The notes: generated by a model from the sequence alone, not told the origin. 32,000 nt of DNA from Caldimicrobium thiodismutans (GCF_001548275.1 NZ_AP014945.1:1530001-1562000); one strand, 5' to 3'; counted from the first letter of the stretch, positions 7,463-29,443 are shown. Made by a program: numbers and translations.

Positions 7463-10051
7463 GTGAAATATTATGATTTTTCTGCCATAGAAAAAAAGTG
7501 GCAGAAGCTCTGGGAAGAAAAAAAGGTTTTCAAGGTCAAAACTGATCTGAATAAACCAAAATACTATGTCCTTGAGATGTTCCCCTATCCTTCTGGAAGG
7601 ATCCACATGGGGCATGTGAGGAATTATACCCTTGGAGATATTATAGCCCGGGTTAAAAGGATGAAGGGTTACAATGTGCTTCATCCCATGGGCTGGGATG
7701 CCTTTGGTCTTCCAGCAGAAAATGCTGCCCTTAAACATGGGACCCATCCAGCTGTGTGGACCTATTCTAATATTGATTATATGCGGGAGCAACTTAAAAA
7801 ACTTGGTTTTAGCTATGATTGGGACAGAGAGTTTGCAACCTGTGATCCTGAATATTATAAATTTGAACAGAGATTTTTTATTGAGATGTATGAAAGGGGG
7901 CTTGCCTATCGGAAGAAAACAGCAGTTAACTGGTGTGAGAGTTGTCAAACCGTCCTTGCTAATGAACAGGTAGAGGAGGGTAAGTGCTGGAGGTGCGGTC
8001 AAGAGGTTATCTCCCGTGAGATGGAAGGTTGGTTCTTGAGAATAACTGCTTATGCAGAAGAACTGCTTGAGGATCTTAAGAAATTGGAAGGCTTTTGGCC
8101 TGAAAAAGTGATTCTCATGCAGAGAAATTGGATTGGCAGGAGTGAAGGAGCAGAGGTAGAGTTTTTTATTCCAGAACTTTCAGAAAAGGTAAAAGTATTT
8201 ACTACCAGACCTGATACCCTTTTTGGTGTAACCTTTCTTGCTCTTTCCCCAGAGCATCCGCTGGCAAAAAGGCTTGCAATGAAAAAGGGCCTGTTTAAAG
8301 AGCTTGAGAGACTTTCTGAAAGGGTAAAAAAAGAAAGAAGACGAATTGAAGAGGGAGTTGCGGAAAAAGAAGGGCTATTTTTAGAGTCCTTTGCTAAAAA
8401 TCCCCTTAGTGGGGAGAGTGTTCCCATTTTTGCTGCCAACTTTGTCCTTATGGAATACGGAACCGGGGCTATTATGTGCGTTCCTGCTCATGACCAGAGG
8501 GATTTTGAATTTGCTAAAAAATATGGGCTTCCTATGAGAGTTGTAATTCAACCCGGAGATAAAACTTTAAAGGCTGAAGAGCTTGAATCTGCTTATGAAG
8601 AACTGGGGATAATGATAAACTCTGGAGAATTTTCTGGTCTTCCCAGCGAGGAAGGTAAAAAAAGGGTCATTGAGAAACTGGAAGCCCTTGGACTTGGGAA
8701 AAAAAGGATTACCTACAGGCTTAGAGACTGGGGAGTTTCTCGCCAGCGTTATTGGGGTTGTCCAATCCCTATGCTTTATTGTGAAAGGTGCGGAATTGTC
8801 CCAGAGAAATTAGAGAATCTTCCAGTCCGGCTTCCATTGGATGCACAGATAGACGCACAGGGCAGGAGTCCTCTTCCAAGGCTTAAAGAATTTGTTTCTG
8901 CCACATGTCCGGCCTGTGGAGGCCCAGCCAGAAGAGAAACCGATACCTTTGACACCTTTGTTGAATCCTCTTGGTATTTTGCAAGATTTACCTGTCCTGA
9001 TTATTCTGAACCCCTTAATTCTCAAGATGTGGATTATTGGTTGCCAGTGGATCAATATGTTGGTGGAATAGAACATGCCATCTTGCACTTACTTTATGCA
9101 AGGTTTTTTACCAAGGTTTTAAGAGATTTAGGATACTTGAGAATAGATGAGCCCTTTAAAAATCTTTTAACTCAGGGAATGGTTATAAAGGAAACCTATA
9201 AATGTCCAAGACATGGCTGGCTTTATCCAGAAGAGGTCTCCTCTGAAGGTAGATGTCTTAAGGATAATTGTGGGGAAGAGGTGATAGTTGGAAAATCAGA
9301 AAAGATGTCTAAGAGCAAGTGTAATGTGGTTGATCCTGATGCCATGATTAAAAAATATGGAGCTGATACAGTTAGGCTCTTTATTGCCTTTGCTGCACCA
9401 CCAGATCGAGACCTTGAATGGAGTGATCACGGCATTGAAGGGGCTTTTCGTTTCTTAAAAAGGGTCTATACCCTGGTTGAGGAGTATGCTGAAAGGCTAA
9501 AGGGAATAACCTATTCAGATAAGGATTTTTCAGAGCTTAGCGGTCAGGCCTTAATTCTAAGAAGAAAACTTCACCAGATGATTAAAAAGGTGCATCAAGA
9601 CTTTGAAGAGAGGCTTCACTTTAATACAGGGATTGCCTCCATTATGGAATTTTTAAATTTCTTACAGGATTCTCTTAAAGAGCTTGATCTTTCAGGGGAT
9701 GTAGAGCTTAAGCTTTTAAAGGAGATCTTTGAAAAGCTTTTACTTGCTCTTTCTCCTGTTTGTCCTCATCTCTGTGAGGAGCTCTGGGCACATCTTGGGA
9801 ATAGTGGGTTTATCTCTGAGGCAAGTTTTCCTCTTTGGGAGGAAAGCCTTCTTAAGGAAGAAAACTTTATCTTAGTTGTTCAAATTAATGGTAAGGTGAG
9901 GGATCAGATTTCAGCTCCTTCAGGAATTTCCAAAGAGGAGGCTCTTGAAATGGTTAAAGGGCTTCCTAAGGTCCAAAAATATCTTGAGGGAAAGACCTTA
10001 AGAAATGTTATCTTTGTCCCTGAGAAACTTATCAATATTGTTGTTTCTTAG
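7463..10051 (+). CDS. leuS: Leucine--tRNA ligase
   Basis: 862 aa. Class I HIGH motif (SGRIHMGHVRNY), KMSKS motif (KMSKSKCNVV), CP1 editing insertion and Cys-rich zinc knuckles. GTG start gives the typical MKYYDFSAIEKKWQ N-terminus. Confidence 0.97.
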   Translation: MKYYDFSAIEKKWQKLWEEKKVFKVKTDLNKPKYYVLEMFPYPSGRIHMGHVRNYTLGDIIARVKRMKGYNVLHPMGWDAFGLPAENAALKHGTHPAVWTYSNIDYMREQLKKLGFSYDWDREFATCDPEYYKFEQRFFIEMYERGLAYRKKTAVNWCESCQTVLANEQVEEGKCWRCGQEVISREMEGWFLRITAYAEELLEDLKKLEGFWPEKVILMQRNWIGRSEGAEVEFFIPELSEKVKVFTTRPDTLFGVTFLALSPEHPLAKRLAMKKGLFKELERLSERVKKERRRIEEGVAEKEGLFLESFAKNPLSGESVPIFAANFVLMEYGTGAIMCVPAHDQRDFEFAKKYGLPMRVVIQPGDKTLKAEELESAYEELGIMINSGEFSGLPSEEGKKRVIEKLEALGLGKKRITYRLRDWGVSRQRYWGCPIPMLYCERCGIVPEKLENLPVRLPLDAQIDAQGRSPLPRLKEFVSATCPACGGPARRETDTFDTFVESSWYFARFTCPDYSEPLNSQDVDYWLPVDQYVGGIEHAILHLLYARFFTKVLRDLGYLRIDEPFKNLLTQGMVIKETYKCPRHGWLYPEEVSSEGRCLKDNCGEEVIVGKSEKMSKSKCNVVDPDAMIKKYGADTVRLFIAFAAPPDRDLEWSDHGIEGAFRFLKRVYTLVEEYAERLKGITYSDKDFSELSGQALILRRKLHQMIKKVHQDFEERLHFNTGIASIMEFLNFLQDSLKELDLSGDVELKLLKEIFEKLLLALSPVCPHLCEELWAHLGNSGFISEASFPLWEESLLKEENFILVVQINGKVRDQISAPSGISKEEALEMVKGLPKVQKYLEGKTLRNVIFVPEKLINIVVS

Positions 10052-10532
10052 TATTAGTCTTTGGGCCTGTGGATATACCCTTCAGGAGAGACCCTCCTAT
10101 TTTAAATCTCACTGGAAAACTATTTATATTCCCCCTTTTAAAAATTATACTCAAGAGTCTGAGATGGGAGAACTTCTGGCTTATGAGCTTCGCCATCGCT
10201 TCAGTCAGGGCAGGCTCCTTATCCCGGTTTATAGGGAAGAGGAGGCGGATTTAATCTTTAAAGGCGAGATTACCAGAGTTTATGTGGAGCCGGTATCTTA
10301 TGAGGTCTTTCTTCAGACTAAGGAAAGAAAAATTCTTTTTGAAGGGAAATTCCAATTGATTGAGCGAATTACTCAAGAAAAGATTTATGAAAATAGAAAA
10401 TTTAATAGATTTGAGACCTATCGTGTCAGTGAGGCTTTAACAGGGCTTCTTGATCCGGGGAAAAAGGAGGCTTTAAAAAAGCTCTCTAAGGATATCTCTG
10501 AGCTTATATTTCAGGAAATATTTTTTAAATAA
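10005..10532 (+). CDS. lptE: LPS-assembly lipoprotein LptE
   Basis: 175 aa. Signal peptide ends in a lipobox-like SLWAC followed by GYTLQ (compare E. coli LptE CGWHLR). Conserved leuS-lptE synteny. Overlaps the leuS 3' end by 47 nt, so the true start could be internal. Confidence 0.7.
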   Translation: MLSLSLRNLSILLFLSISLWACGYTLQERPSYFKSHWKTIYIPPFKNYTQESEMGELLAYELRHRFSQGRLLIPVYREEEADLIFKGEITRVYVEPVSYEVFLQTKERKILFEGKFQLIERITQEKIYENRKFNRFETYRVSEALTGLLDPGKKEALKKLSKDISELIFQEIFFK

Positions 10533-10534
10533 GC

Positions 10535-11134
10535 TTACCAAGTCTTAAATCCCTCTAAGGTTTCTTTAATTTCCTTAGGTTCCCAGAATCTTAGGCCCAA
10601 GGAATCTGCCATGTAAAGGACTCCGCGGTCAGCAGATAGAACAACTCCATCCAGTTCAAGGGCAAGGAGAATAATTTCAAGGTCTTCCTTACTATCAACA
10701 ATTCCTTCTCTTAATACCTCTCTATACTTCCGTCGCAGGGACTTTAATACCTCCTCCGGCTTTTTATAGGTTAAGGCTTTGACAGCCTCTTCAGCAATTC
10801 TTAATCCCTTATTGATACGGTTGCGGATTTCATCAATAAATTCATACATTAAAAAAGCAGGAATATAGAGTTCATATTTTTTCGGTGACTTAACTTTAAG
10901 CACTGATCTTGCTTTGGGAGGAATTTTCATCTGAGAAATCATTCTTTTCAACTCATCATAAACAGAGGTAGGTATATAGACACTTACATCCCCCTCAAGT
11001 TCTGCCACAAGGAGAAGAAAGTTCTGAAAGGCAGAAAGAGGGTCTTCTCCAAACTGATGATAGACATCTGGGTTGGTAAAAATACTGGTATCAGGAATTA
11101 ATCTTTCCTTTTCCATGGGAATGATTTTAAACAA
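10535..11134 (-). CDS. PIN_5/UPF0278-family metallonuclease, candidate HARP (protein-only minimal RNase P)
   Basis: 199 aa. N-terminal acidic PIN motif (LIPDTSIFTNPDVY), central RNRINKGLRIAEE, and C-terminal KYREVLREGIVDSKEDLEIILLALELDGVVLSADRG. As I recall it, this is the pattern of Aquifex Aq_880 and the archaeal MJ0950 family. The size also fits (about 23 kDa). Confidence 0.65.
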   Translation of the reverse strand: MFKIIPMEKERLIPDTSIFTNPDVYHQFGEDPLSAFQNFLLLVAELEGDVSVYIPTSVYDELKRMISQMKIPPKARSVLKVKSPKKYELYIPAFLMYEFIDEIRNRINKGLRIAEEAVKALTYKKPEEVLKSLRRKYREVLREGIVDSKEDLEIILLALELDGVVLSADRGVLYMADSLGLRFWEPKEIKETLEGFKTW

Positions 11135-11196
11135 TAAAATTTTAAGGTCAAGGGAAAAATTGGACTTTACAACTGGAAAAAAAGTTATATGTTTAA

Positions 11197-12270
11197 ATGA
11201 TTATGCGGTTGAAACTTGCCTTGATTGGATGTGGAAAAGCTGCTGAGCGCCACCTCAAAATTTATCAGGCTTTAAAGGATGAGGTGGAAGTGGTTGCTGT
11301 ATCAGATCTAAATCCTGAGAGAGTTAAAATTTTTTCTGAAGCCCTATCTGCTAAACCCTATACAGATTTTCAAGAGATGCTTAAAAGAGAACCTGTAGAT
11401 GTGGTTGACCTTGCCGTTCCATCAGGTCTTCATAAAAAAGTGGGAGAAATTATTCTAAAAAAATTTCGTAAGCATCTTCTGGTGGAAAAACCTCTTGCTC
11501 TTACTCTTAAAGATGCAGAAACTCTGGTAAATTTAGCGGAAAGATATCAACTTAAGCTGGTAACCATTTTTCAAAATAGAGCCAATCTTCCTGTAATTAA
11601 GGTTAAAGAACTTCTTGATAAGGGTTTTTTTGGGAAAATTGTGCTACTTTCAGTAAAGTTTTACTGGTCAAGGAGACAGAATTACTATGACAGTGCAAGT
11701 TGGAGGGGCACCTGGGCTTATGATGGAGGAGCCCTTGCCCAACAGGGTTGTCATTTTGCTGATATGATGACCTATCTTTTAGGAGAGGTTGAAAGCTCTT
11801 TTGCCAAAATGGGAACCTATCTTGTAAATATCGAGGCTGAAGACCTTCTTGTGGGAACCGTTAAATTCAAAAATGGAGCCCTTGGAACAATTGAAGCCAC
11901 AACCTGTGCAAGACCAAAGGACATAAAAGCCGAGGTGGTTTTGCTGGGAGAAAGGGGCTCAGCAATTATTGGAGGATTTGCCATGAATCGGCTTGATTAT
12001 CTTTCCCTTGAAGGAGTTGAAGATCCCACCCCACTCATAGAGGGATACAGGGAAAATCCCCAGCATCCCCTTGGATATTCTCACTTTAGTTATATAAAAT
12101 CAGTCTTTGAGTATTTTAAAAAGGGAGAAAGGGCACCTTATCTTGCTGTTGGAGAAGATGCCCTTCCTTCTCTTCAGCTTATTATCGGACTTTATGAATC
12201 GGCAGAAAGAGGAAAAGAGATTCACTTTCCCTTTAAACCAAGATACTGCAAACTTGGAAAAGGAGTATAA
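11197..12270 (+). CDS. Gfo/Idh/MocA-family nucleotide-sugar dehydrogenase (WbpB/GnnA-like 3-oxidase candidate)
   Basis: 357 aa with a Rossmann N-terminus (LALIGCGKAAERH), an EKP motif (LLVEKPLALT) and FQNRANLP. Sits 2 nt upstream of a DegT aminotransferase. Confidence 0.8.
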   Translation: MIMRLKLALIGCGKAAERHLKIYQALKDEVEVVAVSDLNPERVKIFSEALSAKPYTDFQEMLKREPVDVVDLAVPSGLHKKVGEIILKKFRKHLLVEKPLALTLKDAETLVNLAERYQLKLVTIFQNRANLPVIKVKELLDKGFFGKIVLLSVKFYWSRRQNYYDSASWRGTWAYDGGALAQQGCHFADMMTYLLGEVESSFAKMGTYLVNIEAEDLLVGTVKFKNGALGTIEATTCARPKDIKAEVVLLGERGSAIIGGFAMNRLDYLSLEGVEDPTPLIEGYRENPQHPLGYSHFSYIKSVFEYFKKGERAPYLAVGEDALPSLQLIIGLYESAERGKEIHFPFKPRYCKLGKGV

Positions 12271-16147: not shown

Positions 16148-17455
16148 ATGGCAGAAGAAATTAAAAAGTTGGATAAAATTCTTAAAAGTTTTTTTTATTT
16201 TGGATGGACTTTACTTTTGATTTCTATATTTTTTAAACATACGAAAACTCTTTGGTGGATAGGAAATAGTTTGATTTTTTTATTTATATTTGTATTTTTT
16301 TTATTAAATAAAGAAATCTTTAAATTTTTTTATAAGTTAAGAGAGCTGAAAAATTTATTAATTATTCTTGCCATTTTTCTTTTTTTGTTACTTCTTTTTT
16401 CATTATTTATTAGTTTAAATAGGATTTATTCAATTGAAGCTTTTATTACAAATTATTTTTTTAATATTATTGTTTTTTTAAGTTTGGTATGTTTAATCTG
16501 TTTTTATAAAAATAATAACATTATATTGATATTGTTTATTTTAATATCTTTTGTCTATGTAATGTTTGTGATGTATTTATTAATGTTTTTTGGTAATTTG
16601 TGTGAATTAAATCTATCATGTTATGTTCTCTCTATTAGTAATGAGATATTTGAAGATGCCATTCTTCAAAAACCTTTAACTATATTGCCCTCAGCTTATC
16701 TTTTATGCTTTAGTGTATTTCTTATAGGTTTTATTACTGAAAGAGGCAAATTGAAATATCTGTTTTTAGTTCTTTTTAGTATTGCTTTTTTGATTATCCT
16801 TTGGTTTAATAGGCGAGCTATATTATTAGGAATTTTTTTGAGTTTGATTTTTTTTATATTTAATGCCCAATCTAAATATATTAAAAAGTTTGTTCTTTTC
16901 TTAACTGGCCTTTTTTTCATATTAGCGTTTTTAATTTTTAATAATCCTTTACTTAAAAATATGTTTTTAGGAAGGGATAACCTTTCAATACTAATTTCTA
17001 AAAATTACGAAGATTTTCCACAAAGTGGATCGCTTGGGATACGATTATATACATGGCCAATTTATATAAAGTATCTAATTAAAAATCCAGTTAAAGGAAC
17101 AGGTATTGGTAGAAAAGTTCAAAAAATAGCAATTGAGAAGGAGAATCTAGATCCTTTAGGAATTGGGAATCCTCACAATACTTTTTTAAATATATGGATG
17201 CAAGCAGGGATTCAAACTTTAATTGTTTTTTTATTACTTTATTTTATGACATTAAAAAGAGCCTTAGAATTATTTAGTTCAAGAATATTCCCCTATGATA
17301 GATTTGGTATTGGATTGGTAGTTTTTTTCATAGCTTGCTTTGTTTATATGAATTTTTTTGGAATGGAAGAAGGAACTCGCTTTGCGCCATTCTGGATAGC
17401 CTCAGGATTAACTTGGGGGTTATGGACAAAATTAAAACTTTCAAATTGGGTCTAA
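16148..17455 (+). CDS. O-antigen ligase/polymerase family (Wzy_C, WaaL-like) membrane protein
   Basis: 435 aa, very hydrophobic. Wzy_C-type periplasmic loop block GTGIGRKV...GNPHNTFLNIWMQAGIQTL. Markedly more AT-rich than its neighbours. Confidence 0.75.
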   Translation: MAEEIKKLDKILKSFFYFGWTLLLISIFFKHTKTLWWIGNSLIFLFIFVFFLLNKEIFKFFYKLRELKNLLIILAIFLFLLLLFSLFISLNRIYSIEAFITNYFFNIIVFLSLVCLICFYKNNNIILILFILISFVYVMFVMYLLMFFGNLCELNLSCYVLSISNEIFEDAILQKPLTILPSAYLLCFSVFLIGFITERGKLKYLFLVLFSIAFLIILWFNRRAILLGIFLSLIFFIFNAQSKYIKKFVLFLTGLFFILAFLIFNNPLLKNMFLGRDNLSILISKNYEDFPQSGSLGIRLYTWPIYIKYLIKNPVKGTGIGRKVQKIAIEKENLDPLGIGNPHNTFLNIWMQAGIQTLIVFLLLYFMTLKRALELFSSRIFPYDRFGIGLVVFFIACFVYMNFFGMEEGTRFAPFWIASGLTWGLWTKLKLSNWV

Positions 17456-20941: not shown

Positions 20942-21666
20942 ATGTATTTCATGAAAGATACCTTTTTTGAAAAAATAGGATATCCAAGCTGGGTTGAAAA
21001 AATTTTCTATTTAGGATTAATTTTTCTTTCCTTTGCTATTTTTTTAAAACATACAAAAGGTTTGTTTTGGTTTCAGAAAGATATATAAAAAAAATAATTT
21101 TAGTGTTATTAGCCATGGTAAGTGTATTACTTAGCCTTTTTATTTTAACACCCTTTGGTCAAGAAATTATGTTTAAATCTCGGGATAAGATAGAGTTGTT
21201 GCTAAGCATAAATAAGGAGGATTGGGCTAAAGCAGGCTCTATGGGATATAGACTTTATATCTGGCCCATATATTTGAAAAAATCTTTAGAAGAACCCTTT
21301 TCAGGAACAGGCCTTGGAAGAAGGGTGCAAAAAAGAGTTCTTTCTGAAACCAATAAAAAAGCCCTCTCCCTTGAGCACGCCCATAATATCTTCTTAAATA
21401 TAGCCCTTCAAGCAGGCTGGCATACTGCTCTTCTCTTTCTTATCTTTTATCTGGTTATCCTTAAAAAAGCCTATGGCCTTATAAAGGGGCCAAACTCAAG
21501 GCCCTATTATACAGGGCTTTTCATCTTTTTAATAGCCTTTTTTATTATGTCTCTCTTTGAAGGAATGGAGGAGGGGGTAAGATTTACTCCCTTCTGGATA
21601 GTTTCAGGGCTTATCTGGGGCTTTAATTTGAAAGAAAGAGAAAAAGCCCTTCTTGAGAATAGATGA
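20942..21666 (+). pseudogene. Internally deleted, frameshifted WaaL-like O-antigen ligase paralog
   Basis: A 48-codon ORF at 20942-21088 (VEKIFYLGLIFLSFAIFLKHTKGLFWF) aligns with residues ~13-38 of the 16148 ligase (LKSFFYFGWTLLLISIFFKHTKTLWW). It stops at TAA 21086-21088. The 21067-21666 ORF, in a different frame, aligns with residues ~242-435 (SERYIKK vs SKYIKK; GTGLGRRV...HAHNIFLNIALQAG; GMEEGVRFTPFWIVSGL). About 200 central residues are missing. Confidence 0.65.
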
Positions 21667-24988: not shown

Positions 24989-25886
24989 GGAAAAGACTTT
25001 TTAAAAAGATTTTTGTCTTGAGTTTAAGAAGGGCTTTTTTCCTTTTACCAGAGGGGTAGATTTTTTCTGCTTCTTTAAGAAAGTTTTTGGCTAAAGGAAA
25101 ATTTTTTTGTCTATAAGCCCTTTTTGTGCCCTCTATGTAAGCAAGAAAAAGGGCATAGGGCTTTAAAGGTTGAAATTCTTCAGGTAAATCTTGAAAGAGA
25201 AGCTCTACTGATTCTTTGAGAGAGGAAAAATAATTTGCATCAGAATGTCTAAGTCTTTGGGGGTGTTCCCTGATGATGCCAAAAGCTTCATTTATTATTA
25301 AGGGGTTATGAAAAATAAGCCATTTGGCTTTTACTGAAAAATCTTCTCTTACTCTTAGCCCCGGGTGAAAGGGGTATCTATAAGCTACTTCTCTTTTTAC
25401 CACATATAAGGCTTCAGAATAAGCTCCTTCAAGATAGGCTTTAAATTTTTTTAAAGGATTCTCTTCCAGAGGAAAGGCCTTAAATTTAAGTTTTCCCCCC
25501 TTTTCTCTAAAAGTATTTAAAATTAAGACTTCAGGCCTCTTTTGAGAAATTAAATATTTAATTTTTTCAAGAGCTCCATTAAGAAGGATGTCATCGGAAT
25601 CAAGGAAAAAGATATACTGGCCTTTAGCAAGGTTTAACCCACTATTTCTTGCTTGAGAGACTCCAAGATTTTGGGAATGTCTATGTATCTTAACTTCAGA
25701 ATGATTTTGAGAGACCTCCTTTAAAAATTCCCAGGTTCCATCCTCTGAGCCATCATCAACCACAATTATTTCAATAGATTTGGAATTAACCTGTGACCAA
25801 ACCGAATTAAGAGTATCCTTTAAGAGGGTGAGGCGGTTATAAGTAGGTATTATTATAGAAAGAAGGGGTGATTCTAAGGTATTCAT
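24966..25886 (-). CDS. GT2-family glycosyltransferase (copy A)
   Basis: 306 aa with GT-A motifs (LSIIIPTYNRLTLL, IIVVDDGSEDGT, FFLDSDD). Paralog of 28036-28896. Confidence 0.85.
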   Translation of the reverse strand: MNTLESPLLSIIIPTYNRLTLLKDTLNSVWSQVNSKSIEIIVVDDGSEDGTWEFLKEVSQNHSEVKIHRHSQNLGVSQARNSGLNLAKGQYIFFLDSDDILLNGALEKIKYLISQKRPEVLILNTFREKGGKLKFKAFPLEENPLKKFKAYLEGAYSEALYVVKREVAYRYPFHPGLRVREDFSVKAKWLIFHNPLIINEAFGIIREHPQRLRHSDANYFSSLKESVELLFQDLPEEFQPLKPYALFLAYIEGTKRAYRQKNFPLAKNFLKEAEKIYPSGKRKKALLKLKTKIFLKSLFHGLGRKD

Positions 25887-26458
25887 AGTAAAACAGATAT
25901 TCCTCCAATTTCTGAGATAAGTTTTTCAATTTCTTCAGGTGGGAATTTTTTAACAGGTTCTCCAATCATAGCTTCACTTATTTTTTCTTCAATGACAGTT
26001 CCGTGAATGTGATCAGCTCCCCAAAGTAGCGCCATTTGAGCAAGGCCAATGCCAAGAAAGACCCAGTGAGCCTTAATATGGGAAAAATTATCAAGCACAA
26101 TTCTTGATAGGGCGATGGTTTTGAGTATTTTTTGAGCAGAAGGAGGTCTTAAATAGGAAAGCTTTGTATTTTCCGGGATAAAGGGAAGGGGAACAAAGGC
26201 TGAAAAACCCCCTGTTTCTTCTTGAATTTCTCTAAGTTTCAAAAGATGATCCACTACTTCTTCCTCAGTTTCAATGTGCCCAAAAAGGAGAGTGGCATTG
26301 GTTTTTATTCCGAGTTTATGGGCAGTTTTAGCAATCTCAATCCATCTTTCTGCACTTATTTTACCTTGATAAAGTTTTTTTCTAATTCTTTCAGAAAAAA
26401 CCTCGGCCCCACCCCCTGGAATTTCAGATAATTCTCTCTCTTTTTTCAAAAAAATCAA
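25883..26458 (-). pseudogene. C-terminal half of an MqnC/MqnE (CofH-like) radical SAM enzyme, N-terminally truncated (remnant A)
   Basis: The 191-aa ORF starts at the family block IPGGGAEVFSERIRKKL and continues NATLLFGHIETEEEVVDHLLKLREIQEETGGFSAFVPLPF...WGADHIHGT. The CxxxCxxC radical SAM half (about 170 aa) is absent because cysC occupies the upstream position. It has a TTG start overlapping the cysC stop. Confidence 0.7.
25924..26063. repeat. Direct repeat, copy A (140 bp, about 96% identical to 28934-29073)
   Basis: Manual alignment at a constant offset of 3010 bp gives about 134 of 140 identical positions with no indels. Flanking sequence drops to much lower identity. Confidence 0.85.
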
Positions 26459-27069
26459 ATTTTCTGTATTCCATGATTAAAAATTTTAGGCAGAATATAC
26501 TTTAATAAAAGATTGACTGACTCTTCAACAGTTATGAGATGGGTATCAATGATAAGGTCAGGATTTTCAGGCTCTTCATAAGGTGCTGAAACTCCAGTAT
26601 ACTCAGGAATTAATCCTTTAAAAGCTTCTTTATATAAGCCTTTTGGATCTCTTTGGGCACAAATTTCAATTGGGCAGCGACAGTAGATTTCAATAAAATC
26701 CTTGCCCAATAAATTCCTGAGATATTGTCGATCCCTTCTAAAAGGAGACACAAACGCGCAAAGCACTACAAGCCCTGCAGATAGCAATAGCTTAATAACT
26801 TCGCCTATGCGCCGGATATTTTCACTTCTATCTTCTGGTGAAAAACCAAGGTCAGAACATAATCCATGCCGGATATTATCTCCGTCCAGAGTAATAGTTT
26901 TAACTTTTAGATCATATAATTTGAGTTCTAATTGATGGGCTATAGTTGATTTCCCAGAACTCGGGAGGCCAGTAAACCAAATGACAAGAGAACGATGTCC
27001 GTTTAGATTTTCCCTCATTTCACGAGTGACTTCAGTTTTATGCCAAAATACTAATTTATTTTTTTTCAT
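26455..27069 (-). CDS. cysC: Adenylyl-sulfate (APS) kinase
   Basis: 204 aa with the P-loop WFTGLPSSGKSTIA, LDGDNIRHGL, FSPEDRSENIRRIGEV and the downstream PYEEPENPDL block, all typical of CysC. Confidence 0.93.
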   Translation of the reverse strand: MKKNKLVFWHKTEVTREMRENLNGHRSLVIWFTGLPSSGKSTIAHQLELKLYDLKVKTITLDGDNIRHGLCSDLGFSPEDRSENIRRIGEVIKLLLSAGLVVLCAFVSPFRRDRQYLRNLLGKDFIEIYCRCPIEICAQRDPKGLYKEAFKGLIPEYTGVSAPYEEPENPDLIIDTHLITVEESVNLLLKYILPKIFNHGIQKI

Positions 27070-27075
27070 ATTTAA

Positions 27076-28005
27076 TTATTTTTCATGCTTGAAAATAGGA
27101 TATTTAAATTTTTTAAGTAATGGGAAAGTTAGGAGAGTAACAAGAAATTTATATTTAAGAGGTAATTTTTTATGCCAATCAATATCTTTTTTAATGTAAA
27201 TTTCTTTTTTAAAGGATAGCTTTACTGGATTACCACCTACAAGATGCTTTTTTTTGAATAAAAATATTTTTTTTTCAAAATTGAAAAAAGGTTTAAAATT
27301 AAAAGCGTGTGTTAAACATGTTAAGGAGGCTTGTATATTATTAGTTAAATCTTCATATTTTATTAAATGATAATTTTTATGTTTGAAATTTAAGATCCCT
27401 AAATTATAAATATTCCATAATCTTGCTGAAGTAAAAGGGTGATATCTTTTCATATAAGATCTCAGTGCAGGATGATATTTTTCTTTAGTCCATGAATATG
27501 CAACTCCCCTTGGATCCCTTACCAGATGAATGATATAAAGCTCTATAGGTAAATCTTTTAAAACATATAAATAATGTGGTAATTTTGATGAATCAATAAG
27601 GATTTTGCAACCTGATATTTCAGCCACAGTTTTATAGAAATTCAAGATGAAATCTGAATACTTTTTTAATTCATTTTTATTTTGTAAAAGATATTTGTTT
27701 CGTTTATAATAATTTAAAATAGGAATATTTTCAACAATTTTTTGAAGATAATAGAGTTTTTCTAATTTATCTTTGCTCGGTAAAGAATTATTAAATAATT
27801 TTAATAGAACCTGCTTCCAAAAGGGGCAATCATCTATAGCTTCACCACAAGAACACAAAGGTTTTTCATAGCGTAAAAGATGCTTCCAGAGCAATCTTGC
27901 CTCACCTAAAGAAAAAGCATCATCTATTTCTCCAAGAATGGCATCAAGAAGGGTTGATCCTGATCTTCCAGCTCCAGCAATGTAAATCACTTTAGTTTCA
28001 GCCAT
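27076..28005 (-). CDS. PAPS-dependent sulfotransferase
   Basis: 309 aa. 5'-PSB loop IAGAGRSGSTLL lies at the N-terminus and the 3'-PB-like HLVRDPRGVAYSW in mid-protein. There is a Cys cluster CSCGEAIDDCPFW. It lies 6 nt upstream of cysC in the direction of transcription and is very AT-rich. Confidence 0.8.
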   Translation of the reverse strand: MAETKVIYIAGAGRSGSTLLDAILGEIDDAFSLGEARLLWKHLLRYEKPLCSCGEAIDDCPFWKQVLLKLFNNSLPSKDKLEKLYYLQKIVENIPILNYYKRNKYLLQNKNELKKYSDFILNFYKTVAEISGCKILIDSSKLPHYLYVLKDLPIELYIIHLVRDPRGVAYSWTKEKYHPALRSYMKRYHPFTSARLWNIYNLGILNFKHKNYHLIKYEDLTNNIQASLTCLTHAFNFKPFFNFEKKIFLFKKKHLVGGNPVKLSFKKEIYIKKDIDWHKKLPLKYKFLVTLLTFPLLKKFKYPIFKHEK

Positions 28006-28896: not shown

Positions 28897-29156
28897 ATTA
28901 AAACTAGTTCCCCACCAATTTCTTTTATCAATCTTTCAATTTCTTCGGGTGGGAATTTTTTAACAGGTTCTCCAATCATAGCTTCACTTATTTTTTCTTC
29001 AATGAATGTTCCGTGGATGTGATCAGCTCCCCAAAGTAATGCCATTTGAGCAAGGCCAATGCCAAGAAAGACCAAGTAAGCCTTTACCTCTTCCTTAGTT
29101 TCAAGATGTCCAAAAATGTGCCTGAAAAGATGGTTAGCCTTTTTATCATGGGGATT
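28893..29156 (-). pseudogene. Second, more decayed remnant of the MqnC/MqnE-like radical SAM gene (remnant B)
   Basis: In-frame translation HDKKANHLFRHIFGHLETKEEVKAYLVFLGIGLAQMALLWGADHIHGTFIEEK aligns without gaps to remnant A (HKLGIKTNATLLFGHIETEEEV...KAHWVFLGIGLAQ...). It carries an in-frame loss of about 60 codons. A stop codon lies immediately upstream at 29157-29159. Confidence 0.6.
28934..29073. repeat. Direct repeat, copy B (140 bp, about 96% identical to 25924-26063)
   Basis: Same alignment as copy A. The mismatches I counted are at 28947, 29006-29007, 29016 and 29039-29040. Confidence 0.85.
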
Positions 29157-29371
29157 TTAATAATTATAAACAGATTTTTTGAAAAATCCACTAAATTGTC
29201 CCTATCTTGAGATTTACAGCTACCTCTTCTGGGAGATAAATCTGTATTTCCTTTTATTATTAACTTGTAAAGCCTTCCTTGGATAGAGGGTGTAAATCCT
29301 TCCTTTTACCCTTTCCCGCCCTTCCTTTTTATAGTAAGGATGTGAACTTATGATAAAGAGTTTTTTATTCA

Positions 29372-29443
29372 AGCCGGCGGTGGGGATTGAACCCACGACC
29401 TGTGGATTACGAATCCACTGCTCTGCCGCTGAGCTACGCCGGC
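29372..29443 (-). tRNA. tRNA-Thr (anticodon CGU), no encoded CCA
   Basis: Reverse complement reads GCCGGCG TA GCTC AGCGGCA GAGC A GTGGA TTCGTAA TCCAC AGGTC GTGGG TTCAATC CCCAC CGCCGGC T. It has a 7-bp acceptor stem, 4-bp D stem, 5-bp anticodon stem with loop TTCGTAA (anticodon CGT), a 5-nt variable loop and a T-arm with GTTCAATCC. Confidence 0.9.

Follow-up and report, generated by a model that had tools for sequence, protein, structure and literature searches.

The gene on the minus strand at positions 10535-11116 of the window, i.e., the 32-kb stretch of DNA analysed here, is an ordinary member of the HARP family, small RNase P enzymes that contain no RNA. It had been identified as such in a first-pass annotation made from the sequence, and that identification is correct; it is also already known, since orthologues of the gene have been catalogued as HARPs. 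HARP, the smallest RNase P known, coexists with the RNA-based enzyme in most of its hosts. With a probability of roughly 85%, we consider the gene to encode a bona fide HARP that is expressed from its own promoter and cleaves the 5' ends of pre-tRNAs alongside the RnpA/RNase P RNA enzyme. HARPs have been known in the Thermodesulfobacteria since 2017 and are reported for this class in PMC9945441 and PMC12439589; the enzyme of one member, Thermodesulfatator indicus, has been characterised, and Caldimicrobium was included in a 2025 survey (PMC12153264).

The first-pass annotation described a protein of 199 aa with three sequence motifs, leaving the strand unstated. An uninterrupted open reading frame of 199 codons does run along the minus strand, from a TTG codon at 11134 to a TAA stop codon at 10535-10537. 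All three motifs are present in its translation, namely DTSIFTNP, INKGLRIAEE and KYREVLREGIVDSKEDLEIILLALELDGVVLSADRG, with the third block reading KYRE..REGIVDSKEDLEIILLALELDGVVLSADRG. The length holds for the open frame but probably not for the translated protein. Nearly all close homologues are 193 aa long, which matches a start at ATG 11116 (MEKERL...), and a conserved promoter-like site overlaps TTG 11134; ATG 11116, giving a 193-aa protein, is therefore most likely the true start. This is a real gene and not a chance ORF, as orthologues were found in 24 species-level Thermodesulfobacteriaceae genomes (79-97% amino-acid identity) and dN/dS is low. The relevant features are the following, in window positions:

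10535-11116, minus strand: HARP coding sequence (RNA-free RNase P family), 193 aa plus stop, identified from the ORF and from PIN_5, TIGR03875 and PDB matches.
11117-11134, minus strand: six-codon upstream extension to the TTG, probably untranslated, within the promoter spacer/-10 box; orthologues begin at the ATG.
11124-11151, minus strand: putative sigma-70-like promoter, TTGACC-16 nt-TAAAAT, ending 7 nt upstream of the ATG and matching the consensus at 10 of 12 positions.
11090-11092, minus strand: codon of catalytic Asp D9 (Aq880 D7), invariant in both family alignments and placed by alignment to 8kd9_A.
10709-10858, minus strand: spike-helix (SH) insertion, residues 87-136, with conserved basic residues R98, R106, R128, K130, R132 and R136 and AlphaFold helices 87-114 and 120-136.
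10682-10696, minus strand: DSKED motif with D141 and D145 (Aq880 D138/D142; PbHARP D151/D155), invariant columns.
10628-10630, minus strand: codon of catalytic Asp D163 (Aq880 D160; PbHARP D173), invariant and mapped.
29372-29443, minus strand: tRNA-Thr(CGU), the only candidate pre-tRNA in the window, found by ARAGORN and Rfam and listed as context only.

Profile searches placed the protein in the family over its full length. The Pfam profile PIN_5 (PF08745) matched with a score of 199.1 bits against a cutoff of 27 (E=7.2e-59), the alignment covering residues 11-195 and profile positions 1-202 of 205, and the NCBIfam profile TIGR03875 scored 193.8 bits, which is also above its cutoff (95.3). 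NCBI names the TIGR03875 family and the orthologues "RNA ligase partner protein", and several orthologues bear the UniRef name "RNA-free ribonuclease P". The score for the narrower equivalog NF003344 was 219.4, i.e., under its cutoff of 241, and the protein is therefore a HARP-family member that lies outside this narrow sub-model. A phmmer search of all PDB chains returned seven distinct sequences, each deposited as "RNA-free ribonuclease P", with E-values from 1.3e-55 (PbHARP, 7E8K/7E8O) to 1.8e-42 (Halorhodospira halophila, 7OG5).

An AlphaFold2 monomer model, built on a 41-sequence alignment, had a mean pLDDT of 88.8. It consists of a PIN-like alpha/beta/alpha core with four strands (residues 4-8, 44-48, 158-160 and 176-178), two long inserted helices (87-114 and 120-136) that correspond to the SH domain described in PMC8266387, and a C-terminal helix (180-192). 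When the model was compared with the PDB using Foldseek, ranks 1-34 were all occupied by HARP chains, the top match being pre-tRNA-bound PbHARP (7e8o_B; TM 0.91, rmsd 1.9 A). TM values were 0.81-0.91 for HARP structures that are oligomeric or bound to pre-tRNA, and 0.64-0.71 for those of the apo form and of H. halophila; among non-HARP matches, Nob1 gave a TM of 0.36, and VapC toxins and other PIN proteins gave up to 0.45. The first-pass annotation had assigned the protein to PIN_5/UPF0278, with Aq_880 as a relative, and had proposed a profile search and a comparison of the predicted structure with Aq_880 as checks; a missing PIN_5 match or catalytic Asp tetrad would have counted against it. 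The assignment is borne out, with profiles, PDB matches, catalytic aspartates and predicted fold all in agreement.

Residues of the active site and SH domain are numbered here from ATG 11116, and their Aq880 equivalents were obtained by direct alignment to Aquifex aeolicus chain 8kd9_A. In Aq880, D7, D138, D142 and D160/161 are indispensable, and R125 and R129 of the spike helix are critical (PMC8266387). The aspartates D7, D138, D142 and D160 correspond to D9, D141, D145 and D163, respectively, and are invariant in family alignments of both 10 and 41 sequences; this tetrad is intact by comparison with Aq880, PbHARP and the HARPs of Hydrogenobacter thermophilus and T. indicus. In the spike helix, R125, K127 and R129 of Aq880 are retained as R128, K130 and R132. 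The PbHARP residues named in PMC9051087 are D151, D155 and D173, which are equivalent to D141, D145 and D163, together with R108, R116, R123, R138, R142 and R146. All of these are retained apart from R123, the position of which is occupied by Lys (K113), a conservative change. The basic spike-helix residues for pre-tRNA binding (R98, R106, R128, K130, R132 and R136) are thus conserved in sequence; R128, K130 and R132, like the catalytic residues, are invariant or nearly so in the two alignments. Aq880 K119 and R123 correspond to E122 and S126 and so are not conserved; in Aq880, these two residues were tested solely within a quintuple mutant.

The closest experimentally tested relative is T. 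indicus HARP (Tin HARP; P0062; "UPF0278"/RNA-free ribonuclease P), likewise of the class Thermodesulfobacteria, which is 67% identical over its full length and shares all of the catalytic and spike-helix residues. In vitro this enzyme is a robust RNase P, and it rescues RNase P-depleted E. coli (PMC9945441, PMC12439589). Functional rnpA and rnpB are present in its host too, and a P RNA is found in T. geofontis, a species of the family to which Caldimicrobium belongs (PMC9945441). T. indicus HARP differs in belonging to another genus, from a marine vent as opposed to a probable terrestrial hot spring, and in its length of 199 aa with a short N-terminal extension; furthermore, its activity has been assayed, whereas the window protein is known from its sequence. 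A. aeolicus Aq_880 (7F3E, 8KD9) and H. thermophilus HARP (8SSF, 8KDA) matched with E-values of 3e-48 and 8e-52, respectively, and TM values of 0.83-0.84, but are only 42-48% identical to the window protein. In the Aquificaceae, moreover, no RNase P other than HARP is present, and the pre-tRNAs have evolved along with it (A at -1) (PMC12439589), whereas an RNP enzyme would be expected alongside HARP here. PbHARP (Planctomycetes bacterium GWF2_40_8; 7E8K apo, 7E8O with pre-tRNA) was the best match in the PDB by both sequence and structure, although it comes from another phylum and is 46-47% identical; the model lies nearer to its substrate-bound form than to apo 7e8k (TM 0.67).

On the basis of these homologies, the protein would be a PIN_5 metallonuclease of ~22 kDa with an inserted two-helix spike domain. 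Monomers would pair through their spike helices, and the dimers would build higher oligomers; HARPs form a dimer via the SH domain and then assemblies from a tetramer up to a dodecamer, which are required for activity (PMC8266387). The basic spike helices would grip the elbow and acceptor stem of the pre-tRNA, and the active site of a neighbouring subunit would cut the 5' leader at +1 using Mg2+ held by D9, D141, D145 and D163. The protein is predicted to be made from its own conserved promoter directly before the ATG and to work, like the T. indicus protein, beside a classical RnpA/RNase P RNA enzyme instead of being the only RNase P; by analogy, coexistence of the two enzymes is the most likely situation in this Caldimicrobium-like host. 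Oligomerisation and pre-tRNA cleavage are ascribed to the protein by homology. Four of the five tested HARPs from bacteria with dual RNase P were inactive on pre-tRNA in vitro, though oligomeric (PMC9945441, PMC12153264), so that conserved sequence alone does not guarantee activity; the only one that was robustly active in vitro and in E. coli complementation was T. indicus HARP (PMC9945441).

Most bacterial HARP hosts outside the Aquificaceae also have rnpA and rnpB (PMC9945441, PMC12439589), as the first-pass annotation had stated. It had further confined HARPs to some Aquificota, other thermophilic bacteria and many archaea; thermophilic hosts are indeed represented, but the family also occurs in non-thermophilic haloalkaliphiles, and the restriction does not stand (PMC12153264). 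The host of the window gene belongs, as judged by orthologues, to the Thermodesulfobacteriaceae and is Caldimicrobium-like, not a member of the Aquificota. Identity to the protein was 97, 93 and 87-90% in Caldimicrobium MAGs and 79-84% in Thermodesulfobacterium species, followed by 72-58% in Thermosulfurimonas, Thermodesulfatator and Thermosulfuriphilus, and 44-48% in Planctomycetes and Aquificaceae. Proteins at the window ends have exact copies on a 582-kb contig (JAEDZT010002866.1) of GCA_017880035.1 and on contigs of JGI metagenome 3300038964 or Logan runs. C. thiodismutans TF1 has a GC content of 38.3%, not far from the 37.1% of the window, and a genome of about 1.8 Mb, according to its row in Table S1 of PMC12153264. 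The HARPs of this strain and of the Caldimicrobium MAGs are orthologues (87-97% identical) that share the same convergent lptE-leuS-icd-greA synteny; they differ at the species or strain level only, and their upstream neighbour varies between genomes.

Wherever dS could be estimated, dN/dS against orthologues was 0.015-0.057, with dS at or near saturation throughout. HARP is thus under very strong purifying selection, and one Caldimicrobium orthologue (L001) has 97% amino-acid identity but only 84% DNA identity. Across more than 20 genomes, the 79-97% identity of HARP tracks that of Icd and GreA and exceeds that of LeuS (73-87%) and LptE (36-83%). The GC content of the gene is 0.388, with a GC3 of 0.345, compared with 0.371 for the window as a whole. 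Recent horizontal transfer was rejected as an explanation for the position of HARP, since its composition is typical of the window.

HARP is convergent with leuS-lptE and lies on the opposite strand, the two stop codons being 2 nt apart (lptE TAA at 10530-10532; HARP TAA, on the minus strand, at 10535-10537). No terminator-like hairpin was found in 10300-11400, and given this and the spacing of the stops, the leuS-lptE and HARP transcripts should overlap, each being antisense to the other. Related loci show the same close tail-to-tail placement. The first-pass annotation had placed the gene where holA commonly sits after leuS-lptE in proteobacteria, the E. coli gene order being leuS-lptE-holA. 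The map position is as described, but because HARP is convergent with lptE, on the opposite strand, it stands outside the leuS-lptE operon. Neither holA nor rnpA, rnpB or Rnl3 ligase was found within the 32-kb window. Of 24 Thermodesulfobacteriaceae loci, 22 share the convergent HARP/lptE-leuS-icd order; neither lptE nor leuS was detected downstream in the remaining two, L002 and L023. The upstream neighbour varies among loci, and may be pyruvate kinase, xseA, STT3, clpB, a beta-CASP RNase, cytochrome b or a tadA-like deaminase; in the window, a gap of 80 nt separates HARP from a divergent oxidoreductase gene. As for LptE, its start is uncertain, because the JGI caller places it ~160 nt further downstream (122 aa) than the long form of NCBI (175 aa); with its longest ORF, lptE would share 47 nt (10005-10051) with the 3' end of leuS.

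The TTGACC-16 nt-TAAAAT sequence is the best promoter-like site in the region, and it encloses TTG 11134. In 16 of 25 orthologous loci, TTGAC is found 35-37 nt before the start codon and an A/T-rich -10 box 6-9 nt before it, with no Shine-Dalgarno (SD) motif, and the site is kept in these loci despite their differing upstream neighbours. In two loci where HARP directly follows a co-directional gene, GGAG is found instead. As the spacing between promoter and ATG is conserved, HARP is probably a self-contained, monocistronic unit with a leaderless or near-leaderless mRNA. Lack of an SD motif is not by itself diagnostic of a leaderless mRNA, given that an SD-like motif precedes only 14 of 30 window genes; the same figure raises the possibility that leaderless mRNAs may be common in this organism. 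For the divergent GFO/IDH/MocA oxidoreductase gene, a promoter-like TTTACA-16-TATGTT in the region 11166-11205 ends at 11193, i.e., 3-9 nt before candidate ATGs at 11197 and 11203, and no SD motif is present.

In some relatives, HARP lies beside other genes for RNA processing. A beta-CASP/RMMBL metallo-beta-lactamase RNase gene, recognised with Pfam, is found directly upstream of HARP in Thermodesulfobacterium thermophilum (L018, 8570-9979 of that locus), and in this species and in T. hveragerdense (L019, 8570-9979) a GGAG ribosome-binding site replaces the promoter-at-ATG arrangement. This suggests that HARP is co-transcribed with another RNA-processing nuclease. In a Thermodesulfobacteriaceae MAG (L011, 9254-9727), the gene immediately upstream of HARP, running in the same direction, encodes a tadA-like tRNA adenosine deaminase. 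At the matching position in three further loci (L002, L004 and L009) lie ORFs of comparable size, the Pfam scan having covered L011. The adjacency could be a tRNA-processing pairing or a coincidence.

The remainder of the window is an envelope-biogenesis region, in which fabZ-lpxA-lpxI-(GFO oxidoreductase)-lpxB, a purH-like gene, greA, icd and leuS-lptE are followed by HARP on the opposite strand. Beyond HARP are the GFO/IDH/MocA oxidoreductase, a DegT aminotransferase and a long glycosyltransferase/O-antigen-ligase/sulfotransferase/APS-kinase cluster, and after this glycan cluster come tRNA-Thr(CGU), an SNF-family transporter and a thioredoxin-reductase-like gene. The tRNA-Thr has U at -1 and discriminator U73, and CCA is not encoded. 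The 24 related loci, scanned with coevolution at A(-1) in mind, contained no tRNA genes, which leaves the U at -1 of the window tRNA-Thr as a single case (n=1). Between this tRNA and the next glycosyltransferase gene are 475 nt (28897-29371) with no convincing ORF and no Rfam match even at E-values up to 1; a gap of similar size exists in a near-identical NCBI strain (L033).

Within the glycan cluster, an APS kinase (cysC) and a sulfotransferase are encoded at 26455-28005 on the minus strand, and their location among LPS/O-antigen glycosyltransferase genes suggests a sulfated surface polysaccharide. The GC contents of the sulfotransferase gene (0.270) and of the gene for a full-length, 435-aa Wzy_C protein at 16148-17455 (0.244) are far under the window mean of 0.371, which is what one would expect of O-antigen genes that are exchanged horizontally, and the near-identical NCBI strain has a different set of genes in this cluster. 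A 199-aa ORF with a TTG start (21067-21666, plus strand) aligns only with the distal two-thirds of the O-antigen-ligase domain Wzy_C and may be a truncated or frameshifted paralogue. Similarly, a 191-aa ORF between the APS kinase and a glycosyltransferase (25883-26458, minus strand) matches radical-SAM CofH/MqnC-type proteins solely in their C-terminal part (profile positions 106-164 of Radical_SAM, plus CofH_C), without the N-terminal half that normally bears the Cys motif; it could be the remnant of a gene, or its start may have been mis-called.

In two archaea, knocking out HARP caused no phenotype, and four HARPs from bacteria showed no activity on pre-tRNA (PMC9945441, PMC12153264). It is thus possible, if on balance unlikely, that the window gene encodes a HARP-family protein with a specialised or stress-linked RNA role, perhaps together with an Rnl3 RNA ligase encoded at another place in the genome, and that the RNP RNase P does the housekeeping. 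The NCBI name for the orthologues fits such a role, as do the figures of the survey, in which Rnl3 is present in 89% of HARP-positive genomes and the Table S1 row for C. thiodismutans TF1 gives it as ligase-positive (PMC12153264). The same part of that table, however, enters TF1 and several Thermodesulfobacterium and Thermodesulfatator genomes, positive for both HARP and Rnl3, as not co-localised. The window agrees with this: no match to Rnl3 (PF18330/TIGR01209) was found among the 30 window ORFs that are 100 aa or longer and were judged to be genes, so none lies within about 5 kb of HARP, nor was Rnl3 found directly upstream of HARP in ten related loci. In addition, a functional connection of HARP to the ligase has not been demonstrated in the literature. 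T. indicus HARP, the closest tested relative, is robustly active on pre-tRNA in vitro as well as in vivo (PMC9945441), and conservation at the level of Icd and GreA with dN/dS below 0.06 fits a constantly needed function better than an accessory one. The preferred reading remains a HARP that cleaves pre-tRNA beside the RNP enzyme.

It is very improbable that HARP is instead the sole RNase P of the lineage, Caldimicrobium having lost both rnpA and rnpB as the Aquificaceae did. An Rfam gathering scan for rnpB and other RNAs recovered only tRNA-Thr from the window, and nothing more from three further loci (61,878 bases) that reach ~10 kb past each window end, the window and flanks examined amounting to about 52 kb of this or a near-identical genome. 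Likewise, tblastn with RnpA (E. coli, B. subtilis and T. maritima) and L34, and a P4-motif search (GAGGAAAGTCC), gave no credible match in 548 kb of HARP-centred loci. Selection on HARP as strong as that on housekeeping genes and the compact C. thiodismutans genome would also fit this reading. The sequence examined is, however, a tiny and biased fraction of any genome, for which reason these absences are uninformative genome-wide; T. geofontis has a P RNA and T. indicus functional rnpA and rnpB (PMC9945441), and reviews place replacement of the RNP enzyme in the Aquificaceae group only (PMC12439589). There is a negligible chance that the protein is, in place of an RNase P, a PIN toxin of the VapC type belonging to a toxin-antitoxin or defence module. 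HARPs do fall within the VapC structural group of PIN domains (PMC9945441), and the protein gave weak matches to PIN-TPR-GreABC (E=0.005, below the cutoff) and to 2lcq, "putative toxin VapC6" (E=5e-4), but the latter, though deposited as VapC6, is a structure of the Nob1 endonuclease. We reject membership of a VapBC system because no antitoxin-sized ORF is adjacent (HARP has only the 80-nt gap to the divergent oxidoreductase upstream and convergent lptE downstream), PADLOC returned no match, TM values to VapC structures are 0.36-0.45 as against 0.8-0.9 to HARPs, and the 193-aa protein carries a 50-residue spike-helix insertion absent from a compact PIN domain (~130 aa). The synteny fixed across the family and the high conservation are likewise unlike those of mobile TA genes.

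The comparative gain from this analysis is modest, in that HARP keeps a fixed position, is preceded by a conserved putative promoter of its own and is under constraint like that on core housekeeping genes; family-wide fixation, a putative dedicated promoter and strong constraint are only mildly new observations. Because of these three properties, the data suggest that HARP is more than a dispensable backup in the Thermodesulfobacteriaceae, and they support species of this family as a model for whether the two types of RNase P share the workload. A bolder reading, which we regard as speculative and rather doubtful, is that throughout the Thermodesulfobacteriaceae HARP is constitutively expressed and indispensable in tRNA 5' maturation, being co-essential with the RNP enzyme or dominant over it; pointing in this direction are its presence in 24 genomes, the fixed synteny, the conserved promoter abutting the ATG, and conservation that is at the level of Icd and GreA and above that of LeuS. 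If true, the family would represent, in stable and living form, the "transition state" that has been postulated for the Aquificaceae ancestor.
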